Assembly: GCA_020696855.1 (NCBI GenBank)
Contig: JAJFMT010000011.1
Span: forward strand, 15,380 to 79,379
Length of the DNA stretch: 64,000 nt
Source: Pseudobdellovibrio sp.
GTDB lineage: Bacteria > Bdellovibrionota > Bdellovibrionia > Bdellovibrionales > Bdellovibrionaceae
Direction: 5' to 3'
The position numbers were made by a program, and so were the translations under genes. The notes under the pieces are model-generated. The model made no database searches and had not been told where the DNA came from. It worked only from the letters and a program-made list of their open reading frames with translations. Within the stretch, counting starts at the first letter, position 1, and each line of letters begins with the position of its first letter. Shown one piece after another: positions 20,017-31,370 of the stretch.

Positions 20017-20580
20017 ATGCAACTTCGCCTTCTGCAACAGTCGTTGATCGGGCTCGCTATGGCCGCGATATTATTATTTGTTTCCGGATGTTTATGGCAA
20101 TCTCCAGATGCTGAGTATAGAGCTTCACGCAGTATCGGTTACAACACCGGTTATGCCCCTGAACAACCACTTCCGTTCAGCCATGAACTTCATGTTGGTC
20201 AAAATAAAATTCAGTGCCAGTACTGTCACAACCAAGTTGAATTTTCAAAAACTTCAAATGTTCCGGCGTTATCAACTTGCATGAACTGCCACCAACAAGT
20301 GAATGGTTCAAAAAATCCTGATGCAATTAAAAAACTTCGCGAAGCCTATGCTGACGGAAAACCAATTGAATGGGTTAAAGTTCACTTACTTCCTGATCAC
20401 GTTCAGTTCAACCACCAGGCTCACGTTAGCCGCGGTGTAAACTGCTCAACTTGCCACGGACCGATTGAAACGATGGCGAAAGTTTACCAATACTCTGATT
20501 TATCAATGGGCTGGTGTGTGAACTGTCACCGTCAACCAGAAAATAAAGCTCCACTTAACTGTTCGACTTGCCACCAATAA
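20017..20580 (+). CDS. actA: Alternative complex III pentaheme cytochrome subunit
   Basis: Five CxxCH motifs (CQYCH, CMNCH, CSTCH, CVNCH, CSTCH); PEQPLPFSH; LSMGWC. Confidence 0.92.
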   Translation: MQLRLLQQSLIGLAMAAILLFVSGCLWQSPDAEYRASRSIGYNTGYAPEQPLPFSHELHVGQNKIQCQYCHNQVEFSKTSNVPALSTCMNCHQQVNGSKNPDAIKKLREAYADGKPIEWVKVHLLPDHVQFNHQAHVSRGVNCSTCHGPIETMAKVYQYSDLSMGWCVNCHRQPENKAPLNCSTCHQ

Positions 20581-20597
20581 GAGAGACGAATACACAC

Positions 20598-23500
20598 ATG
20601 AAAACTACACACGACTCAATCAACGAAAAACAAACGGACAGACCGCAAAGAGACCGCACTTACTGGCGCTCTTTTGAAGATTTAAACGACACACCTGAAT
20701 TCAATCAGGCATTACAAACTGAATTCATGTCTTCTCCTATTCGTGCAGAAGCTGCTAAAGAAGGCGATAACGATAAATGGGCCCGCCGTGAATTCATAAA
20801 GCTGATGGGAGCTTCTGTAGCGTTAACAACAGCTGCCGGTTGCATCCGTCGCCCTGTACAAAAAATTGTTCCTTACGTTCGTCAGCCTGAAGAAGTAACT
20901 CTTGGTGTTTCTAACTGGTATACGTCTTCTTACTTCGACGGCCAGGAGCACTTAGGTTTATTAATCAAGTCACGTGAAGGCCGTCCTGTACACATTCAGG
21001 GTAATCCTTCAAATCCACTGAACAAAGGCGGCGTTTCTTCAAGAGCCCAGGCTTCGTTATTAAGTCTTTATGATCCTGAAAGACTTCAAGCTCCAAAAAG
21101 AAATTTGCTAAATGAAAAACGCACTAACCGCGAAACAGTTGCTGTTTCATGGGAAGACCTTGATTCAAAAGTTGCCGGTGAATTGCAAAAAGGCAATTCA
21201 TACATTTTGTCAGGCAACATTACTTCGCCTGCAACTCAGGCCGTAATCAATGACTTCGGTCAGGGCTTTGGCACAAAACACGTTGTTTGGGAGCCGCTCG
21301 GTAATGACGACGTAGCTGAAGGTCAAAGAGTGTCTTATGGTGAAGCTGTTGTTCCGTCTTACCGTTTTGATAAAGCCGAAACGATTGTTTCAATCGATGC
21401 AGACTTTTTAGGTACATGGATTTCTCCTGTTGCTTTCACTAAGCAATTCTCATCGGCCCGCAAAAATCCTGCGACGATGAACCGCTTGTACTCTTTCGAT
21501 TCGACTTATTCTTTGACGGGTTCTAATGCTGACGTTCGTTTCAGAATTAAGCCTTCACAGCAATTAACTGTGGTGATGGGTTTAGTAAATGCTGTTATCA
21601 AATCAGGTAAAGCAACAGGCGTTAGTGATGCAGCGAGAAGCTTAGCGGCTAAATACGCAAACGCAGCTCAAGACCTGGGAATCGCACCGGAAAAATTCCA
21701 GAAAGTTGCGACCGATTTATTAAATGGCCCTTCACTTGTGGTAGCGGGTGGCTTGGCAACCCGTACTGAAGCTTCATTGCAATTGCAGATCGCTGTGAAT
21801 CTACTGAACAGCCTTCTGGGTAACGACGGCAAAACTGTTATCGGCAATGCCGGAAGCAGCCGCTTGAAAGCTTCATACGCTGACATGCTGAACCTGATCG
21901 AAAGAATGAAGTCAGGCGCAGTGACAACTTTAATTATTTACCGTTCAAACCCAATGTACGCTTTATCAGGTGCAGCAGGTTTCGCAGAAGCTCTTAAAAA
22001 AGTTCCAACTGTCGTTTACATCGGCGATCAAATGAATGAGACAGCATTGCATGCTCATTACGTTGCGACCGACAATCACGCTCTTGAAACATGGGGTGAT
22101 GTTGAATACGCAGCAGGTGTTTACGGTGTTCATCAGCCGTTGATCCGCACTATGTACGATACACGTTCGTTCCAGTTGTCTTTGATGACTTGGGCGTACA
22201 TGTCTAAAAAAGGTCCTCAGCGTTTACAAACTTACGAAACTTTTTATGATTATCTGCGCGCTTTCTGGAAAGAAGAAATGGCCGGCAAAGTTGCCAAAGG
22301 AAGAGATTTCGAAACTCTTTGGAACGATTTACTGCAAAACGGCAGCGTTGGTGAAGTTGCGACTTCAGGATCAGCTCGTTCATTTAAAGCTGACGCTCTT
22401 TCAAAAATTTCGGGAAAACAAAACTCATCTTCTCTTGAGCTTGTTCTATACCCAACAGTTCAAATCGGTGACGGCTCATTAGCCAACATCGGCTGGTTAC
22501 AAGAGTTGCCGGATACAGTTACTAAAATCGTTTGGGACAACTACGCATCAGTTTCTTTAAAAACAGCTGAACGTCTTCACTTAAAAGAAGGTGATGTTGT
22601 AACTTTAACTGTAAACGGGCAGAAGGCTGAACTTCCAACTCATATTCAACCGGGCTTACATGATGAAGTTGTAGCAGTTGCAGTTGGTTACGGCCGTACA
22701 GCAGCAGGTAAGGTTGGTAATGGAGTAGGTGTTGATGCTTACAAACTTGCAGGCGTGCAAAATGGCGAAGTTGTATTCGCAGGTTCTGCAGCTGAGCTTA
22801 CTAAAACCGGAAAATTCATTCAGTTAGTAACAACTCAAGGCCACGATTCAATGGAAGGCCGTCAGTTAGTCGTTCAGGCAACTAACAAAGATTATAAAGA
22901 AAACAAAGAAGCAAATATCCACAGACATCACACTTGGTCTATTTGGTCAGGTCACCAGTACAACGGTCACAAATGGGGTATGGCAATTGACTTGAACTCG
23001 TGTACGGGCTGCTCAGCTTGTATGACCGCGTGTCAGTCTGAAAATAACATTCACGTTGTGGGTAAAAAATATGTCTTCCAGGGCCGTGAAATGCACTGGA
23101 TCCGTATTGACCGTTACTACACCGGTGATGTTGAAAATGCAGAGACAGTATTCCAGCCGGTAACATGCCAGCACTGTGACAATGCTCCTTGCGAAACAGT
23201 TTGCCCGGTGGCTGCGACTTCACACAGTGAAGAAGGCTTAAACGACATGGTTTACAACCGTTGCGTTGGAACACGTTACTGTTCAAATAACTGTCCTTAT
23301 AAAGTACGCCGTTTCAACTGGTTCAATTACGCAAAGTTAATTGAAAAACCAATGCACATGGCTTTGAACCCTGAAGTGGGTGTACGTACCCGCGGTGTAA
23401 TGGAGAAATGTACTTTCTGCGTTCAGCGTATCAAAGAAGGTAAAAACAAAGCTAAAGTTGAAGGCCGTCCATTAAAAGACGGAGATGTTAAAACAGCATG

Positions 23501-23744
23501 TGAAGTGGCTTGCCCTGCTGACGCCATCGCATTCGGTGACCTGAATGATGAGAACTCACGCGTAGCAAAAGTTTTCAAAGCAGAACCTCGCGCTTACGCG
23601 CTTCTTGAAGAATGGCATGCTCGTCCTTCTATCCGTTACATGTCTAAAATCAGAAACAACGATCAAGTGACTCCGCCTAAACACGGTCATCACGGGGAGG
23701 CTCCTAAGAACGAGCCTGCACATCAAGAAGGAGGTCACTCATGA
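20598..23744 (+). CDS. actB: Alternative complex III subunit B (fused molybdopterin-oxidoreductase-like and Fe-S domains)
   Basis: YWRS, TAT motif RREFIK, AAGC lipobox; four Fe-S motifs including [12 protein letters not shown]; start set to ATG 20598. Confidence 0.93.
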
Positions 23745-25105
23745 GTCAGATGAAACGTAATCCTTTAGTTTTAGGAAATAAAACACTTAAAGATGTAACA
23801 GATGATATCTGTGCTCCGCTTGAAAGATTTCCGTCAAAAGGCTGGATGGGACTTTTCCTTGCAGCTAAAACTCTTTTCTTATTTTACATTGCGACCATCG
23901 CGATCGTCATCGCTACCGGTATCGGTTTATTAGGTGTAAATCACCCGGTTGCATGGGGAACGATGATTATCACGTTCGTATTCTGGATCGGTATCGGTCA
24001 TGCCGGTACTCTGATTTCAGCGATCTTGTTCCTGTTTCGTCAAAGATGGAGAACATCAGTTGCTCGTACTGCGGAAGCAATGACGGTTTTTGCGGTTATG
24101 ACAGCGGGTATCTTCCCTCTGATCCATACCGGCCGTCCTTGGTTAGACTTCTGGTTATTCCCTTATCCGAATCAGCGCGGGCCTTTGTGGGTTAACTTCC
24201 GTTCACCATTACTTTGGGACGTTTTCGCCGTATCAACATACGCGACTGTTTCAACAGTTTTCTGGTTCGTAGGTCTTATTCCTGACTTCGCTACGATTAA
24301 AGACCGCGCGACCAATAAAATCCGCCGTACAATTTACGGAGCTTTGTCGTTAGGTTGGAGAGGTACAGCTAAGAACTGGTCACACTATGAAATGGTGTAC
24401 TTAATTCTTGCGGGTCTATCGACTCCGCTGGTTCTTTCGGTTCATACGATCGTATCGTTCGACTTCGCGGTTTCAAATTTACCGGGATGGCATGCGACGA
24501 TCTTCCCGCCGTACTTCGTTGCGGGTGCGATCTTCTCGGGTTTTGCGATGGTTATTACGCTGTTCACTTTGGTGCGCATCGGATGGCCTGAGTTTAAAAA
24601 CTACGTCACCTTAGACCACATGGAAGTGATGAATAAAATCATCATGATGACAGGTTTAATGGTTGGTTACGCTTACGGATCTGAATTCTTAATCGCTTGG
24701 TACTCTGGTAACGATTACGAGCGTTACGTATTTATGAACCGTGCAATGGGCCCTTACGCGTGGTCTTACTGGATTATGATCTGCTGTAACGTTGTTATTC
24801 CGCAGCTTTTCTGGTTCAAAAAATTCCGCCGTTCAATCCCAGTGATGTTCGTCGTTTCAATCTTCGTTAACATCGGTATGTGGTTCGAGCGTTTCGTAAT
24901 CACGGTAACATCGCTTCACCGCGACTTCTTACCATCGAACTGGGGTCAGTACGCTTGGTCGATCTACGATACATGTATCTTAGTTGGTTCATTCGGTATG
25001 TTCCTGACCATTTTCTTATTATACCTACGCGTTTTCCCTGCGATCTCGATTGCGGAAATTAAACCTGTCTTACATGTCGGTAAAGACGAAGAAGGAGGTC
25101 ACTAA
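23741..25105 (+). CDS. actC: Alternative complex III quinol-binding subunit (NrfD family)
   Basis: [48 protein letters not shown]. Confidence 0.95.
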
Positions 25106-25629
25106 TGGCTAAGGCTATTGGCGGCATCGCCGGAATCTTTTTAAAAGAAGCAACAGTTCTGAAAGCAGCGGCACGGGTTCGCGAATCAGGATTTGTAAAG
25201 TTTGATGCGATTACACCTTACCCTGTACACGGTATGGAAGAAGCGTGCGGAATCAAACGCTCGACAATTCCTTACGTGGCATTTGCAGCGGGTTGCACAG
25301 GTTTAATGGCAGCATTGGCACTTGTTTGGTACACGTCGGTTGTTGACTGGCCTTTAAATATCGGAGGTAAGCCGATGTTCTCATTGCCTGCATTTATTCC
25401 GATCATGTTCGAGTTAACAGTTCTATTTGCAGCCTTGTCTTCAGTGGTGGCTTTGTTTGTTCATGCAGGAATGCCAAAGGTTGATCCGCCGGTAATCGAC
25501 AAAGATCTGACTTGCCATAAGTTCGCAATCTTCATTCCGGAAAATGACGTTGGTTACAACGCTGACCGTGTTGAAAAGTTATTGAGAGAGCTTGGCGCAG
25601 ACGAAGTTAAGAAAGTGGCGGAATACTAA
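25105..25629 (+). CDS. actD: Alternative complex III subunit D (DUF3341)
   Basis: TPYPVHG, WPLNIGGKP, FIPIMFELTVL. Confidence 0.92.
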   Translation: MAKAIGGIAGIFLKEATVLKAAARVRESGFVKFDAITPYPVHGMEEACGIKRSTIPYVAFAAGCTGLMAALALVWYTSVVDWPLNIGGKPMFSLPAFIPIMFELTVLFAALSSVVALFVHAGMPKVDPPVIDKDLTCHKFAIFIPENDVGYNADRVEKLLRELGADEVKKVAEY

Positions 25630-25630
25630 T

Positions 25631-26221
25631 ATGATAAATTCAACTAACAGATCACTTGTTAATCTTCTCATGACTCTGGTAGCAGGTTTTGTAGTGATTT
25701 CATTTACAACAGCTTGCTCAAAAAATCAGGATCAACCGAATGTTGAGCTGATTCAGGACATGATGATAAGCCCGGCCATTAAACCTCAAGAGGGCGACGT
25801 GGATTCTCCGAATAATTCGGGAATGCGCGTGCCGCCTGAAGGCACTCAGCCGGTTGGATTTATTCCTTACAAATACGCTAATGACATCGCAGGTGCAGCT
25901 CAGAATCAAAATCCATTGGGTTCAGATTCTTCAGAAGCCGTTATGAAAGTCGGACTAAAATATTATTCGACTCAATGTGCGGTTTGCCACGGTGAAAAGG
26001 GCGAAGGTTCGGCTGCAGCAAACTCTGCAGTAGGAACGAAAATGGCTCTTCAGCCGCCAAGCCTCGTGTCTGATAAAATGCGCGCATGGACAGACGGTCA
26101 GATTTATCATGTTATTACTGTCGGGCAGGGAATGATGGGGCCGTATGCTTCGCACATTCCGCAAAAATACCGCTGGCAGGTTGTTAATTACATCCGTTCT
26201 CTTCAGAAAGATAATAAGTAG
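25631..26221 (+). CDS. actE: Alternative complex III monoheme cytochrome lipoprotein
   Basis: TTAC lipobox, MRVPPEGT, single CAVCH, MMGPYA; start set to ATG 25631. Confidence 0.9.
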   Translation: MINSTNRSLVNLLMTLVAGFVVISFTTACSKNQDQPNVELIQDMMISPAIKPQEGDVDSPNNSGMRVPPEGTQPVGFIPYKYANDIAGAAQNQNPLGSDSSEAVMKVGLKYYSTQCAVCHGEKGEGSAAANSAVGTKMALQPPSLVSDKMRAWTDGQIYHVITVGQGMMGPYASHIPQKYRWQVVNYIRSLQKDNK

Positions 26222-26227
26222 GTCGTC

Positions 26228-27424
26228 ATGGGAACTCATTCATCACATCAAGAATTAAAATTAAATAAGTTCGAATTGTCTTCTACTCTGAAAGGCATTT
26301 TGGGCGCAGCTTTGTTGATCGGTCTTGCTACTTTCATTTTCGGGTTTGTAAAAAACCCGGATCGCATGTGGCCGGCTTACTTAACAGCTTTTTTCTACTT
26401 TGCTTCCATTGCAAGTACGGGCATGTTCTTCGTTGCTTTCAATCACGCGGCAAATGCGGGTTGGAGCGCTTCGATCAGACGTTTTGCTGAAGCGATGTCA
26501 GCATTCTTCCCTTACATGTTGGGTGGAGGCCTGTTGTTATTCGTTGGTATCAAGTACTTGTACGCTTGGGGCGTGCCTGAAACTTACCACACATTAACCG
26601 GCGGCAAGCAAACTTACTTAGCTCCTGGATTCGTGTTAGCCCGAATGATTATCTTCGGCTTGGGAAGTATTTTCTTCGCTAAAAAAATCGTTGGAAATTC
26701 ACTTAAACAGGACACCACAGGTGATCACCAGTTAACAAAAAACAATTTGAGTCTTTCAGTTGGTTACATTGCATTCTTTGCAATTTTCTTTTCTTTATTC
26801 TCAATTGATTTACTCATGTCATTGCTGCCAACTTGGTATTCTACAATTTACGGAGTTTACTGCTTCGCTGCCGGCCTTCAGGCTACGTTCGCATTCTTGT
26901 CGATTGTTATCGTTGTAATGAAGAATTCAAAATGGATCTCTGGCTACGTTACAGAAGAGCATCAGCACGATGTTGGAAAATACTTAAAAGGTTTTTCAGT
27001 TTTCTGGGCTTACATTGCGTTCTCTCAGTTCATGTTAATCTGGTACGCAAACATCCCTGAAGAGACAGAGTTCTATATCATGCGTTCTCTGAACGGGTGG
27101 ATGCCGGTATCGTTTGCTTTATTGATCTTCCGCTTTATCGTTCCATTCCTGGTATTGTTACCGCGCGGATCGAAGCGTACGGATTCTATCCTGGTCGGTA
27201 TCTCAGCTCTGGTACTTGTTATGCACTACGTTGATATTTACTGGCTGGTTTACCCGAACTTCTTCGACGGAATTCCGCAATTCGGTCTGTGGGAAGTGGG
27301 CATGTTCCTGTTTTTCGCCGCTATTTTCCTGGGTTCAATGTTCCAGTTCATGTCTAAAAACAATCTGGTTGCTATTAAAGACCCTCGCTTGCACGAGGCC
27401 CTTAAGCACCATGTGACTTACTAG
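26228..27424 (+). CDS. actF: Alternative complex III membrane subunit F
   Basis: Multi-TM; WYSTIYG, HDVGKY, FSQFMLIWYANIPEE. Confidence 0.92.
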   Translation: MGTHSSHQELKLNKFELSSTLKGILGAALLIGLATFIFGFVKNPDRMWPAYLTAFFYFASIASTGMFFVAFNHAANAGWSASIRRFAEAMSAFFPYMLGGGLLLFVGIKYLYAWGVPETYHTLTGGKQTYLAPGFVLARMIIFGLGSIFFAKKIVGNSLKQDTTGDHQLTKNNLSLSVGYIAFFAIFFSLFSIDLLMSLLPTWYSTIYGVYCFAAGLQATFAFLSIVIVVMKNSKWISGYVTEEHQHDVGKYLKGFSVFWAYIAFSQFMLIWYANIPEETEFYIMRSLNGWMPVSFALLIFRFIVPFLVLLPRGSKRTDSILVGISALVLVMHYVDIYWLVYPNFFDGIPQFGLWEVGMFLFFAAIFLGSMFQFMSKNNLVAIKDPRLHEALKHHVTY

Positions 27425-27474: not shown

Positions 27475-27504
27475 AAAAGCCCCTTGAAATGGGGGCTTTT
27501 TTTT
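27475..27504 (+). terminator. Rho-independent terminator of the act operon
   Basis: AAAAGCCCCT-tgaaat-GGGGGCTTTT plus T-tract. Confidence 0.88.
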
Positions 27505-27515
27505 GAGATTATAAC
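27484..27515 (+). promoter_or_regulatory. Putative sigma70 promoter for the thrS leader, embedded in the act terminator
   Basis: TTGAAA (27484) N17 GATTAT (27507, preceded by TG); overlapping TATAAC (27510) sits 6 nt before ATG 27522. Confidence 0.55.
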
Positions 27516-27521
27516 AACACG

Positions 27522-27608
27522 ATGATGTTCATGTTCTCTACAGCATTACATTCTCAATTCTTAACCAATACGACGACCCGTGCGGTTGTTGGCTCTACGA
27601 CATTTTAA
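27522..27608 (+). CDS. Putative Thr-rich leader peptide (uORF) of thrS, 28 aa MMFMFSTALHSQFLTNTTTRAVVGSTTF
   Basis: Open frame ATG..TAA with 7 Thr codons including ACC AAT ACG ACG ACC, ending 18 nt before thrS. Confidence 0.7.
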   Translation: MMFMFSTALHSQFLTNTTTRAVVGSTTF

Positions 27609-27626
27609 TGTCGATCTCATAAACTT

Positions 27627-29558
27627 ATGCCTGAAATTCAGATTATTTTACCGGACAACTCGGTACGCACTTTTGATCATAACCCTACGGCGCTTGAAGT
27701 AGCAGCGTCGATCGGTAGCCGTTTGGCTAAAGATACTCTCGGAGCAAAAATTAATGGCTCTCAGGAGATTATCGACTTTCGAACGCCGCTTGAAAATCAA
27801 ACGAAGTTACAACTGGTCACGACTAAATCTCCTGAATCAGTTGAAGTCATTCGTCACTCAGCCGCTCACTTGATGGCTCAGGCCGTTCAGCAAATTTGGC
27901 CCGAGGTGAAAGTGACAATCGGTCCGGTGATTGAAAACGGATTTTATTACGACTTCGATTCTCCATTTAACTTCACTGAAGAACATTTTGAAAAAATCGA
28001 AAAAAAGATGGAAGAGCTTCGGAATAAAGATTTTCCAGTGGTCCGTGAAGAATGGTCTATCCAAAAAGCGATCGATATTTTTACTAAAATGGGCGAGCGC
28101 TTTAAAGTCGAACTCATTAAGGATTTGGCAGCCAAGGGCGAGACGGTCGTTGGAATTTACCATCAAGGTGACTGGTTTGATTTGTGCCGTGGTCCTCACG
28201 TTCAATCGACAGGACAGATAAAAGCTTTCAAACTGATGAAGGTGGCGGGTGCTTACTGGCGCGGAGACGAAAAAAATCCGATGCTCCAGCGCGTATACGC
28301 GACAGCATTCAACGATAAAAAAGATTTGGATGCTTACCTTGTTCAGTTAGAAGAAGCTGCTAAACGCGACCACAGACGTTTAGGAAAAGAACTTGGCTTA
28401 TTCATGTTTCATGAATGGGCGCCGGCATCTCCGTTTTTTACCGGACGGGGAACGGTTGTTTACAACGAACTTATTAATTACATCCGCGAGCTGTATCACA
28501 AATACGATTACCAAGAAGTGATCACGCCGCAAATTTTTGATATCGAGCTTTTTAAAACGTCAGGCCACTATCAGAATTATAAAGAGAATATGTACTTCTC
28601 TAATCCTGATGAGCGCGAATTCGGTGTAAAACCGATGAACTGCCCAAGCCACTGTTTATTGTTCGCATCTGAAAAGCACTCGTACCGCGAACTTCCATTA
28701 CGGATGGCGGATTTCGGCCGTTTACACCGCTACGAAAAGTCGGGTTCCCTACACGGTTTATCCCGCGTAAGAACATTTTGCCAGGATGATGCCCATATCT
28801 TTTGTTCGATGGACCAGTTAAAAGGTGAAATTTTTAAATTCATCGAATTGCTGAATGAAATTTACCAAACCTTAGGTATGCCGAATTACAAATTATTCTT
28901 AGCCACTCGTCCGGAAAACCGGATGGGCAGTGACGAATACTGGGACATGTCTGAAAAAGCGCTGGGCGATGCGGTTACAGAAATGGGGCTGCAGTTCGGA
29001 GTACTTCCGGGTGAAGGCGCCTTCTATGGCCCTAAACTTGAAATGCATTTCGTCGATGCGATCGGGCGCTCATGGCAGACGGGAACAATCCAGGTTGATC
29101 CGAATTTGCCGGAAGCTTTCGACCTTAAATTCACAGGTGAAGACAACAAAGAGCACCGGCCACTCATGTTACACCGAGCGGTTTTAGGTTCTTTAGAGCG
29201 CTTTATCAGCGTTTACCTGGAGCACACGGCTGGCCACTTGCCTCCGTGGATGTCTCCGAACCAGGTAACGATATTGAACGTTACTGACCGGGTAAACGTA
29301 TTCTGTGAAACAATGCAGGCTGAATTGAAAGCTAACGGAATTCGCGTTGAGTTCGACAGACGGAATGAAAAATTGAATTTTAAAATCCGTGAAGCTCAGC
29401 TGAAAAAAGTTCCGTACATGCTGATTGTCGGAGATAAAGAAGCCGAGCAAAGATCGGTGTCGGTCCGTTTAAAAGACGGTTCGATGCACAATAACATTCC
29501 GTGGGAAAAAGCCCGCGAAGTGATTAGAAAACTGCTGCCCGAAATGGCGCAGGTATAG
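27627..29558 (+). CDS. thrS: Threonine--tRNA ligase
   Basis: TGS domain, HSAAHLMAQA, DLCRGPH, KPMNCP, HRYEKSG, QDDAHIF, HRAVLGSLERF. Confidence 0.98.
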   Translation: MPEIQIILPDNSVRTFDHNPTALEVAASIGSRLAKDTLGAKINGSQEIIDFRTPLENQTKLQLVTTKSPESVEVIRHSAAHLMAQAVQQIWPEVKVTIGPVIENGFYYDFDSPFNFTEEHFEKIEKKMEELRNKDFPVVREEWSIQKAIDIFTKMGERFKVELIKDLAAKGETVVGIYHQGDWFDLCRGPHVQSTGQIKAFKLMKVAGAYWRGDEKNPMLQRVYATAFNDKKDLDAYLVQLEEAAKRDHRRLGKELGLFMFHEWAPASPFFTGRGTVVYNELINYIRELYHKYDYQEVITPQIFDIELFKTSGHYQNYKENMYFSNPDEREFGVKPMNCPSHCLLFASEKHSYRELPLRMADFGRLHRYEKSGSLHGLSRVRTFCQDDAHIFCSMDQLKGEIFKFIELLNEIYQTLGMPNYKLFLATRPENRMGSDEYWDMSEKALGDAVTEMGLQFGVLPGEGAFYGPKLEMHFVDAIGRSWQTGTIQVDPNLPEAFDLKFTGEDNKEHRPLMLHRAVLGSLERFISVYLEHTAGHLPPWMSPNQVTILNVTDRVNVFCETMQAELKANGIRVEFDRRNEKLNFKIREAQLKKVPYMLIVGDKEAEQRSVSVRLKDGSMHNNIPWEKAREVIRKLLPEMAQV

Positions 29559-29585: not shown

Positions 29586-30245
29586 ATTAACACCCTCGCC
29601 CCAAGACCAAAAGGTCCTTCCAAGTTCGATAGAGACAAAAAACGTGAAAAAGATGGATTACGCGTAAACCGTGAAATCCGTGCCCAGCAAGTACGACTGA
29701 TTGATGATGAGGGAAAAATGCTAGGTGTAATGTCAGTGCCGGAGGCCCTGAGAATCGCCGAAGACCGAGGCTTGGACTTACTTGAAATTGCTCCGAATGC
29801 TCAGCCGCCGACATGTAAAATCATGGACTACGGCAAATACAAGTACGAAGAAAAAAAGAAAGCAGCAGCTTCCAGAAAAAATCAGGTTGTTGTCACCATT
29901 AAAGAAATTCAAATGCGCCCGCGTACGGATCAGCATGACTTCGAAACAAAAATGAAACATGCCCGCCGCTTTTTACTAGAGGGCGACAAAGTAAAAGTAA
30001 ATTTACGTTTCATGGGCCGCGAGATGGCGCACCAGGAAACAGGTTTGGCTGTAGTGAACAAGGCGATCGAGTTCGTAAAAGATCTTGCGATTGTTGAAGC
30101 TCCGCCAAAAACAGAAGGCCGTAACATGTTTGCCATGTTAGCGCCGGATCCGGTTAAAATTAAAGAATACATCAAGCTTCACCCGAATAAAAAAGATGAA
30201 GTTCTTGAGCCTATGAAAGAAGAAGTTGATAACGATGAAGAATAG
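29586..30245 (+). CDS. infC: Translation initiation factor IF-3, AUU start
   Basis: AAGGAG SD then in-frame ATT at 29586 extends the ORF to include RVNREIRAQQVRLID; CKIMDYGKYKY. Confidence 0.93.
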   Translation: MNTLAPRPKGPSKFDRDKKREKDGLRVNREIRAQQVRLIDDEGKMLGVMSVPEALRIAEDRGLDLLEIAPNAQPPTCKIMDYGKYKYEEKKKAAASRKNQVVVTIKEIQMRPRTDQHDFETKMKHARRFLLEGDKVKVNLRFMGREMAHQETGLAVVNKAIEFVKDLAIVEAPPKTEGRNMFAMLAPDPVKIKEYIKLHPNKKDEVLEPMKEEVDNDEE

Positions 30246-30678
30246 CTTTTTTCTGATAGCACTGCTGGCATTTACCGGTTGTGCCGGTGGTAAAGGGTTG
30301 TTTGGTAAATCATATGAAGTCACTCCGGGAGCAGAGCGTGTCCGCGTTTTAGATGCGGAACCTAAAGGCTGTCTTTACGTCGGAGAAGTGGCCAGCATTC
30401 AGGAAGACCGCAATGTAGGTACTCTTGAAACGCAAATGGAACTTGAAACGCGTGTTGATCTGCGAAACAAGGCGCACGCTCTTGGCGGAAACATTCTGGT
30501 TTTTCTAAAGGGGAAAAACACGAATACTCTTCCGGGCTCAGCTCCTGCAGCTAAAACCGGTGCAGCTAAACCTGCTGATGGCAATGCCACTCAGTCAATG
30601 GAACCGCCGGATAATCCGAACACCTTGGTGTTTCTCGCCACGGTGTTTAAGTGCCCTTCAAGCGTGTTGAATCAATAA
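30235..30678 (+). CDS. Lipoprotein, DUF4156-like
   Basis: FTGC lipobox; GCLYVGEV..LRNKAHALGGN..VFKC pattern; start overlaps infC end. Confidence 0.7.
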   Translation: MKNSFFLIALLAFTGCAGGKGLFGKSYEVTPGAERVRVLDAEPKGCLYVGEVASIQEDRNVGTLETQMELETRVDLRNKAHALGGNILVFLKGKNTNTLPGSAPAAKTGAAKPADGNATQSMEPPDNPNTLVFLATVFKCPSSVLNQ

Positions 30679-30708
30679 AAAAAAGCCGGTCCAAAGCCGG
30701 CTTTTTTT
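30677..30708. terminator. Bidirectional Rho-independent terminator
   Basis: A8-GCCGGT-ccaaa-GCCGGC-T7 between convergent genes. Confidence 0.9.
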
Positions 30709-30729
30709 ATTTCTTATATCTCAGAAAAT

Positions 30730-31029
30730 TCAGTACGGAAGCTTCTTGGCCTGATCAATTGTTTCAAGCACATCCTTGTTGGCTTTGTACTTCAAGCGAA
30801 TAGAAGCCTCATCTTTTTCTAACTGGTCACAGCGCAAGGTCTTCATCGCGATTGCAATTTGCGATGCGCGGTCTTTGTCATATGGTTCTTCACCGGACCA
30901 GTGAGCGCAGTCGCGGATTCTCGAAACCAGGCTGACTACATCGTTTGGCATTTTTGCCGGTGCGGAAGGGTTTTGAGCAAAAGCTGAAACAGATAAAATG
31001 GTAACAATGAGGAGGGTAATAGTTTTCAT
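30730..31029 (-). CDS. Small secreted two-Cys helical protein (paralog 1)
   Basis: Signal peptide (AFA); CAHWSGEEPYD..LRC..KY; similar to the neighbouring ORF. Confidence 0.8.
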   Translation of the reverse strand: MKTITLLIVTILSVSAFAQNPSAPAKMPNDVVSLVSRIRDCAHWSGEEPYDKDRASQIAIAMKTLRCDQLEKDEASIRLKYKANKDVLETIDQAKKLPY

Positions 31030-31073
31030 AAAAGAGATATAGCATCCGACCGGGAATATTTAAATGTCAGCAA

Positions 31074-31370
31074 TCAGACATAGACTTCGTCGATTGAGCT
31101 AACGATAGTTTTATCGTTTTGGTATTTTTGGCGGACAGCCATTTCTTCTCTAACAATGGCTTTGCAATTCAAGTTGTCCAATGCGGTTCGGATTTGAATA
31201 GAGCGCTCCTTGCTTTTCCAGGGATCTGCATTGTCCCAGTAGCTGCAGGCTTTAATTTTAGTTGTGAGAGCCGTGACGTCCGAAGGAAGTTGTTGTGTAG
31301 GAGCGTTTACCGCGAAACCTACGTTAGGAGCCAAAACCAAAAGAATTAAAATGTTTTTTAAGCTTTTCAT
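31074..31370 (-). CDS. Small secreted two-Cys helical protein (paralog 2)
   Basis: Signal peptide (GFA); CSYWDNADPW..LNC..KY aligns with paralog 1. Confidence 0.78.
   Translation of the reverse strand: MKSLKNILILLVLAPNVGFAVNAPTQQLPSDVTALTTKIKACSYWDNADPWKSKERSIQIRTALDNLNCKAIVREEMAVRQKYQNDKTIVSSIDEVYV

Follow-up and report, generated by a model that had tools for sequence, protein, structure and literature searches.

How do ribosomes reach a threonine-tRNA ligase gene that carries no SD sequence, and why does a short open reading frame (ORF) rich in threonine codons stand directly in front of it? The locus raising this question lies in a window of 64,000 nucleotides from Pseudobdellovibrio sp., the whole stretch of DNA that was analyzed here. 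Its features, in order along the forward (+) strand, are the following.

27476..27504, + strand: intrinsic-terminator-like hairpin with T-tract, belonging to the upstream operon (stem 27481-27495, followed by the T tail)
27484..27489, + strand: predicted -35 box TTGAAA, from a promoter scan
27507..27515, + strand: predicted -10 region (GATTAT at 27507-12 at 17-nt spacing, overlapped by TATAAC)
27522..27608, + strand: Thr-rich leader ORF of 28 codons, predicted to be leaderless, ending Thr-Thr-Phe-stop
27571..27591, + strand: hairpin 1, 8 bp, over the Thr run (minimum-energy fold)
27598..27613, + strand: hairpin 2, 6 bp, in which the last Thr codons pair with the mini-ORF start (minimum-energy fold)
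27608..27622, + strand: mini-ORF MSIS, candidate relay, in TAATG overlap with the leader stop and 4 nt short of thrS
27627..29558, + strand: thrS, threonine-tRNA ligase without SD, ATG at 27627 (TIGR00418 thrS, 700.7 bits)
29586..30245, + strand: infC, encoding IF3; ATT start (29586-29588), own SD AGGAG at 29575-79

The leader ORF translates as MMFMFSTALHSQFLTNTTTRAVVGSTTF, with its seven Thr codons at positions 7, 15, 17-19 and 26-27, and its stop TAA (27606-08) shares one base with the ATG (27608) of the mini-ORF. At the local base composition the probability of at least seven Thr codons in the 27 codons is 0.00015, a value that concerns a single ORF chosen after looking. The gene itself is best matched, among named thrS records, by entries labelled Bdellovibrio at 74-82% identity. 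An earlier sequence-only reading had described a 28-codon ORF with seven Thr, a 4-codon ORF and two hairpins, all of which were recovered where it had placed them. It had also described thrS as devoid of an SD, and the anti-SD pairing energy at the thrS start bears this out (+0.3 kcal/mol; -2.7 at the leader start), an SD being counted at -4 or lower.

The first step of an answer concerns the transcript 5' end. The same reading had taken TATAAC for the -10 box; this box is present but lies 20 nt from TTGAAA, and the -10 element at 17-nt spacing is GATTAT, 9 nt before the leader ATG, which leaves a predicted untranslated leader of 0-3 nt. Across the order of predatory bacteria to which Bdellovibrio belongs (Bdellovibrionales), considering only ORFs that end near thrS, a TTG is found exactly 36 nt before the leader ATG at 53 of 157 loci and at 35-38 nt at 91 of 157, compared with 1 of 30 controls. 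Such a spacing fits a transcript start at or next to the leader ATG, and the leader ORF is likely leaderless, its start codon forming the 5' end of the message. Contigs from four RNA runs cross the predicted start unbroken, contigs of a type that can reveal neither a start nor transcription; the related locus of genus g17 is present in 24 runs, with word shares of 0.21-0.44. The promoter overlaps the terminator of the upstream operon in such a way that the -35 box falls in the hairpin loop region and the T-tract serves as spacer, and a thrS promoter inside the upstream terminator is also seen at loci L002, L005, L006, L009, L010, L016, L019 and L021. That operon (20568-27424) resembles alternative complex III, with matches to NrfD, ActD and cytochrome c, and its last gene, whose product ends in HHVTY, precedes thrS in many relatives.

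To place the locus in a wider frame, 173 thrS loci were taken from genomes of the order, among the matches listed (thrS matched in 195 of 201 genomes); since 47 weaker thrS matches lie beyond those listed, sampling is thin for the most distant families. One locus beginning inside thrS and four with fewer than 150 nt upstream were removed, leaving 168. For comparison, 73 thrS loci of other bacteria served as controls; they are mostly GC-richer, and 72 have enough upstream DNA. Composition figures are genus-weighted because kin are not independent. Tests blind to Thr content were preferred, as a loose test based on Thr content matched 9 of 72 controls besides 24 of 34 loci of the window's genus. 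In the assemblies, thrS is apparently split or shortened at G104:C1:1460000-1460715, L020 and L025, perhaps through assembly error.

A promoter rule devised after viewing the window's genus and blind to Thr, which asks for a -10 box followed after 4-11 nt by a short ORF, matched 79 of 168 order loci and 1 of 72 controls; a looser rule, equally Thr-blind, matched 117 of 168 and 4 of 72, respectively. Taken together, the two rules place a leader at 126 of 168 loci in 42 genera and leave 42 loci without one. The sequence-only reading had suggested looking for Thr-codon upstream ORFs (uORFs) ahead of thrS in relatives, and this Thr-blind search found them; its claim of a conserved and likely leaderless Thr-codon leader ahead of an SD-less thrS is supported by the order-wide counts. 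An SD stands at the thrS start of only 16 of 168 order loci, as against 52 of 73 controls; 44% of the long ORFs of genome G000 have one under a crude start call. When G000 was scanned throughout for a promoter followed by a short ORF, its 2231 long ORFs yielded 14 matches, of which thrS alone stood out. No cognate-codon leader was found in this genome before 14 other candidate synthetase ORFs, a motif-picked and incomplete set of which one is partial.

As to what the leader encodes, five of the 126 leaders have no start after their stop, are apparently mis-assigned and were left out of the counts over 121 loci. Thr accounts for 19.9% of the last eight leader codons in frame (z 10.7, genus-weighted), compared with 2.9% and 1.4% in the other two frames of the same span and 7.6% in base shuffles. 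Each of the four Thr codons contributes (ACC 147, ACG 90, ACA 77, ACT 52). Thr reaches 20-31% at leader positions -2 to -6 and occupies the final codon in none of the 121 leaders; Met is also raised in the last eight codons (4.4% vs 1.1%). At least two Thr among these eight codons are found in 80 of 121 leaders, spread over eight of ten families. The bias is strongest in the window's genus, where Thr makes up 47% of the last codons, against 20% in genus g17, in which Ser (27%) exceeds Thr. The g17 type of leader also occurs in the named Bdellovibrio record L032. Because ThrRS misactivates Ser, these Ser-rich g17 leaders (L120-L148) make Ser sensing worth a look. The promoter and the coupling described below are intact at L005, L006, L161, L189 and L221, where the leader holds no or one Thr codon, and two of these loci belong to the window's genus; they are natural controls for the sensing step. 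A CA-repeat enhancer of leaderless translation was considered as a source of the Thr codons and ruled out, the bias being frame-specific, shared by four codons and placed at the 3' end.

From this pattern it is probable that the leader senses the charging of tRNA-Thr. The opposing proposal is that the leader merely feeds the SD-less thrS with ribosomes constitutively, perhaps tuned by IF3, and that its Thr bias has no regulatory role. Delivery-only uORFs have been proposed (PMC12548453, excerpt), IF3 inhibits leaderless initiation according to the excerpted text of a review (PMC9031893), and 11 of the 121 order leaders are free of Thr. Further evidence comes from an outgroup set of 38 loci from other orders of the phylum, to which two more from this order were added. 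Eighteen of the outgroup loci, from three families, lack an SD altogether (0 of 18) and have an adjoining ORF in 16 of 18 cases, with TTG at the leaderless spacing in six and a Thr share of just 5% over the last eight codons; because an ATGA start creates an overlapping stop by itself, coupling counts for less in these loci. The other 20 mostly have no such ORF among those listed and several possess an SD, start calls being rough. From this comparison, the delivery ORF may have come first, without Thr, and the Thr run later. Constitutive delivery gives, however, no account of a frame-specific and codon-degenerate Thr excess ahead of the cognate synthetase in eight of ten families, and we consider it improbable as a full explanation within the order.

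The proposed passage of ribosomes from the leader to thrS is where the comparative evidence is most telling. The leader stop lies between -8 and +14 nt from the thrS ATG in 85 of the 126 loci, and 37 of these show a 1-nt stop-start overlap. Where the leader ends more than 8 nt before thrS, a relay ORF fills the interval at 22 of 41 loci, with 2.3 expected. For gaps above 14 nt the path is completed by one or two ORFs in 23 of 30 cases (shuffles: mean 2.1, maximum 7) and for gaps above 21 nt in 14 of 19 (shuffle mean 1.6), the five dropped, mis-assigned loci being scored as misses in these chain counts. Locus L012 carries the leader MLFITTTTTF followed by a 22-codon ORF that stops 2 nt before thrS, while at L019, L021 and L129 three ORFs are linked by two TAATG overlaps and one ATGA overlap. 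The relay ORFs themselves show no Thr enrichment (10 of 228 codons). MSIS in the window belongs to this conserved relay type. Best supported among the new results is that selection maintains an uninterrupted reading path from the 5' end of the transcript to thrS, and we infer that ribosomes travel along the ORF chain to the gene. Translational coupling, which the sequence-only reading had put forward, is the part of its proposal that the counts of leader stops near the thrS ATG and of complete chains support best; leaderless translation and coupling can together be held very probable on these comparative grounds. Frameshifting or readthrough into thrS was rejected: the window's leader is in frame with the gene with no intervening stop, yet the three frames are represented 70, 29 and 22 times over the 121 loci.

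If ribosomes are delivered in this way, the hairpins might still decide their fate. In the window, the leader region taken as a whole folds only modestly better than shuffles (z -1.49, equalled by 20 of 200). Hairpin 2 recurs frequently, as predicted pairing, in the window's genus, with loops of 4 to about 20 nt; at the position of hairpin 1, L002 and L003 carry a hairpin of different sequence. A translational switch of the mycobacterial Cys type would have the Thr codons pair with the next start, so that a stall frees this start for fresh initiation. Hairpin 2 does pair with the mini-ORF start in the window (probability 0.95), and similar pairing is predicted in many members of its genus. Over 41 genera, however, pairing of the next start with upstream sequence amounts to 0.43 and that of codon-shuffled controls to 0.46, with only 15 of 41 genera above their control, and covariation in hairpin 2 across 15 aligned loci falls below that of shuffles with 71% of cells paired, in a set filtered for Thr and TAATG and aligned without gaps, shifted registers being scored as unpaired. 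Ribosome stalls modelled at Thr17 and Thr19 leave hairpin 2 closed (0.93 and 0.95), and one at Thr26 opens it only through covering it. In 90% of 98 loci fewer than 27 nt separate the last Thr codon from the next AUG. A ribosome stalled there would therefore sit over this start instead of exposing it, and there is no SD to unmask. With the AUG covered and hairpin 2 closed, an opening switch misfits the order and is improbable. The two hairpins, which the sequence-only reading had made part of its model, are thus not borne out as general features. Leader-internal hairpins clearly beat codon shuffles (mean z below -1) in only 8 of 32 genera. In genus g17 (L120-L148) a hairpin often ends about 6-13 nt upstream of the thrS start (mean z -1.8).

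Other RNA-based devices find little to rest on. No intrinsic terminator with hairpin and U-tract follows the leader in the window, whose + strand is free of any terminator-like site there, in agreement with the earlier claim, and only 1 of 121 order leaders has one. Rfam models gave nothing at the gathering score in the window, the weak matches sitting on the upstream terminator; no T-box appears among these 13 weak matches, and ten relatives were without a match at the gathering score. ThrRS might instead bind the leader hairpins as an operator in the manner of E. coli thrS, and the loop of hairpin 1 contains CGU. A mimic of the tRNA-Thr anticodon arm is, though, found in 1 of 121 leaders and is absent from the window, and looser hairpins with GU in the loop number 20 compared with 26 in shuffles, which makes an operator very improbable.

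Coupling poses a problem of sign. Stalling lowers reinitiation (PMC4833913, excerpt). With coupling alone, a stall on the leader would therefore lower thrS expression, and the usual sign, a rise upon starvation, requires that the stalled ribosome save the message. The explanation that we prefer, with a probability of about 0.4 for the whole, runs as follows. The Thr-rich ORF at the predicted 5' end of the transcript would load ribosomes leaderlessly and hand them from stop to start, by termination-reinitiation through the 4-codon relay, to the SD-less thrS. When charged tRNA-Thr is scarce, the ribosome would stall on the Thr codons beside the junction and shield this C-rich junction, most likely against Rho, whereby the yield of full-length thrS-infC message would rise. 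That stalling raises output through shielding seems slightly more probable than not.

One alternative accepts the sign that coupling dictates: under Thr scarcity, stalling on the Thr codons would bring ThrRS synthesis down, for instance as a brake on Ser mischarging or when a cell outside prey starves. This would be a direct consequence of coupling (PMC4833913, excerpt), the stalled ribosome would cover the next AUG as described above, and no thrC was found above the cut-off in G000. A fall in ThrRS would, on the other hand, reinforce itself, and a plain throttle gives no reason for Thr to cluster at the leader's 3' end. All synthetase controls known to us rise upon starvation, which also counts against such a throttle, and it remains unlikely. 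A broader possibility, still doubtful, is that the sensor is the ribosome entry itself: charged tRNA-Thr would be read at the hand-over junction through the efficiency of reinitiation, possibly with inverted sign. This would amount to amino-acid control by termination-reinitiation, in which Thr codons were added to an older Thr-free delivery ORF and the relay comprises up to three tiny ORFs.

Returning to shielding, the question becomes from what the message is protected. Rho is encoded in G000. The C/G ratio within 60 nt on either side of the thrS start is 1.58, compared with 0.93 downstream and with 1.10 and 1.05, respectively, in controls; this C>G bias at the junction is partly a by-product of the Thr codons. 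In the window, the junction reaches the 91st percentile for this bias when ranked among G000 genes and has an unremarkable number of YC dinucleotides (11; median 10). The rut signal there is weak. In the excerpted text of PMC12360218, rut sites are described as favouring C>G and little RNA structure, and tnaC as a case in which the stalled ribosome shields one. Overlapping stop and start codons in Mycobacterium tuberculosis appear to suppress Rho termination (bioRxiv 10.1101/2022.06.01.494293, excerpt), which speaks against Rho at a junction of coupled ORFs. Overall, Rho rather than a nuclease is our tentative choice of agent.

The nearest rival to the preferred reading, ahead of the inverted throttle, the hairpin switch and delivery without sensing, keeps the relay and Thr sensing and lets the stalled ribosome shield the AU-rich junction or the 5' end from a nuclease of the RNase E/G type; a cut at the junction would separate thrS from its site of ribosome entry. 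G000 encodes an RNase E/G family protein, the final leader codon begins with U in 73% of cases (genus-weighted) and the stop region is AU-rich. RNase E prefers RNWUU, and this motif occurs at the leader stop in 43 of 121 loci, but it is almost as frequent in random leader windows (31 of 121). The RNase J model was unmatched in G000, which is 86.5% complete. On balance, nuclease shielding appears rather unlikely.

The nature of the control also determines whether it extends to infC, which is likely co-transcribed with thrS. The sequence-only reading had thrS-infC controlled by translational occlusion or coupling, or else by Rho-dependent termination. A translational control is unlikely for infC given its own SD and its ATT start, and only an effect on the message, through transcription or decay, would reach it. 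The ATT start lies 44 codons upstream of the first ATG. IF3 autoregulation is known in E. coli, and an ATT start behind an SD fits the same here. An Ile codon (ATT, some ATA) is seen at the infC start of L002-L030 and L111-L134, and the ATT overlaps the thrS stop in some of them. Downstream of infC (30226-31370) lie a DUF4156 gene and two short minus-strand ORFs, which break the usual infC-rpmI-rplT run; two short ORFs beyond them are, by their translation, presumably rpmI and rplT.

Among known systems, the leader resembles E. coli thrL and pheM (RF00506 Thr_leader, RF01859 Phe_leader), the latter preceding a synthetase gene, in being a leader peptide with cognate codons, and differs from them in having no terminator or antiterminator. 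A close arrangement is that of Streptomyces lividans TK24, where a leaderless thrL precedes thrS, likewise a short ORF with Thr codons (PMC8079986, excerpt). In the same excerpt thrL has a hairpin without a U-tract and its termination mechanism is left open; the peptide is another, with 2 Thr in 18 codons, and comes from a different phylum, and the excerpted text does not mention the coupling or relay ORFs found here. The mycobacterial Ms5788A shares with the present leader a leaderless ORF, a run of cognate codons at the 3' end and the lack of a classical terminator; as excerpted, its Cys run base-pairs with the SD that serves the following gene, and a stall releases this SD (bioRxiv 10.1101/834739), whereas here there is no SD and the leader stop usually abuts the next start.

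In tnaC, mgtL, corL and cruR the ribosome on the uORF decides the access of Rho without an intrinsic terminator (PMC12360218, excerpt), and it is most likely like these uORF-mediated Rho-dependent attenuators that the present element would work. According to the same excerpt tnaC is an arrest peptide with a separate intergenic rut site; here, by contrast, the peptide is not conserved beyond its Thr bias and a Ser/Phe end, and a stop-to-start link leads to the gene. Ribosome-delivery uORFs share with our leaders a short ORF that runs into or directly adjoins a gene without SD, and the excerpted reports describe for them neither a tie to a cognate amino acid nor a conserved relay chain at a single gene (PMC4833913, PMC12548453, bioRxiv 10.1101/2022.06.01.494293). 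Overlaps between uORFs have been reported in M. tuberculosis (bioRxiv 10.1101/2022.06.01.494293, excerpt).

Our literature searches listed nothing on a thrS leader in Bdellovibrio, and an earlier prediction within the group is possible. An abstract by Lopatovskaya and colleagues from 2010 reportedly names thrS among genes with predicted attenuation. What is new here is the mini-ORF as a putative conserved relay, and the relay chains together with the problem of sign set this element above an ordinary leader peptide.

Read in this manner, the element would add a fourth mode of thrS control to the enzyme-bound operator, the T-box and the classical attenuator, and it would do so in culturable predatory bacteria. 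The conserved relay chains offer unusually clear comparative evidence for short ORFs that would be kept only to pass ribosomes on. Cognate codons are moreover placed where stalling should lower coupled translation, so that either shielding at the level of the message outweighs this loss or the sign of the control is reversed.
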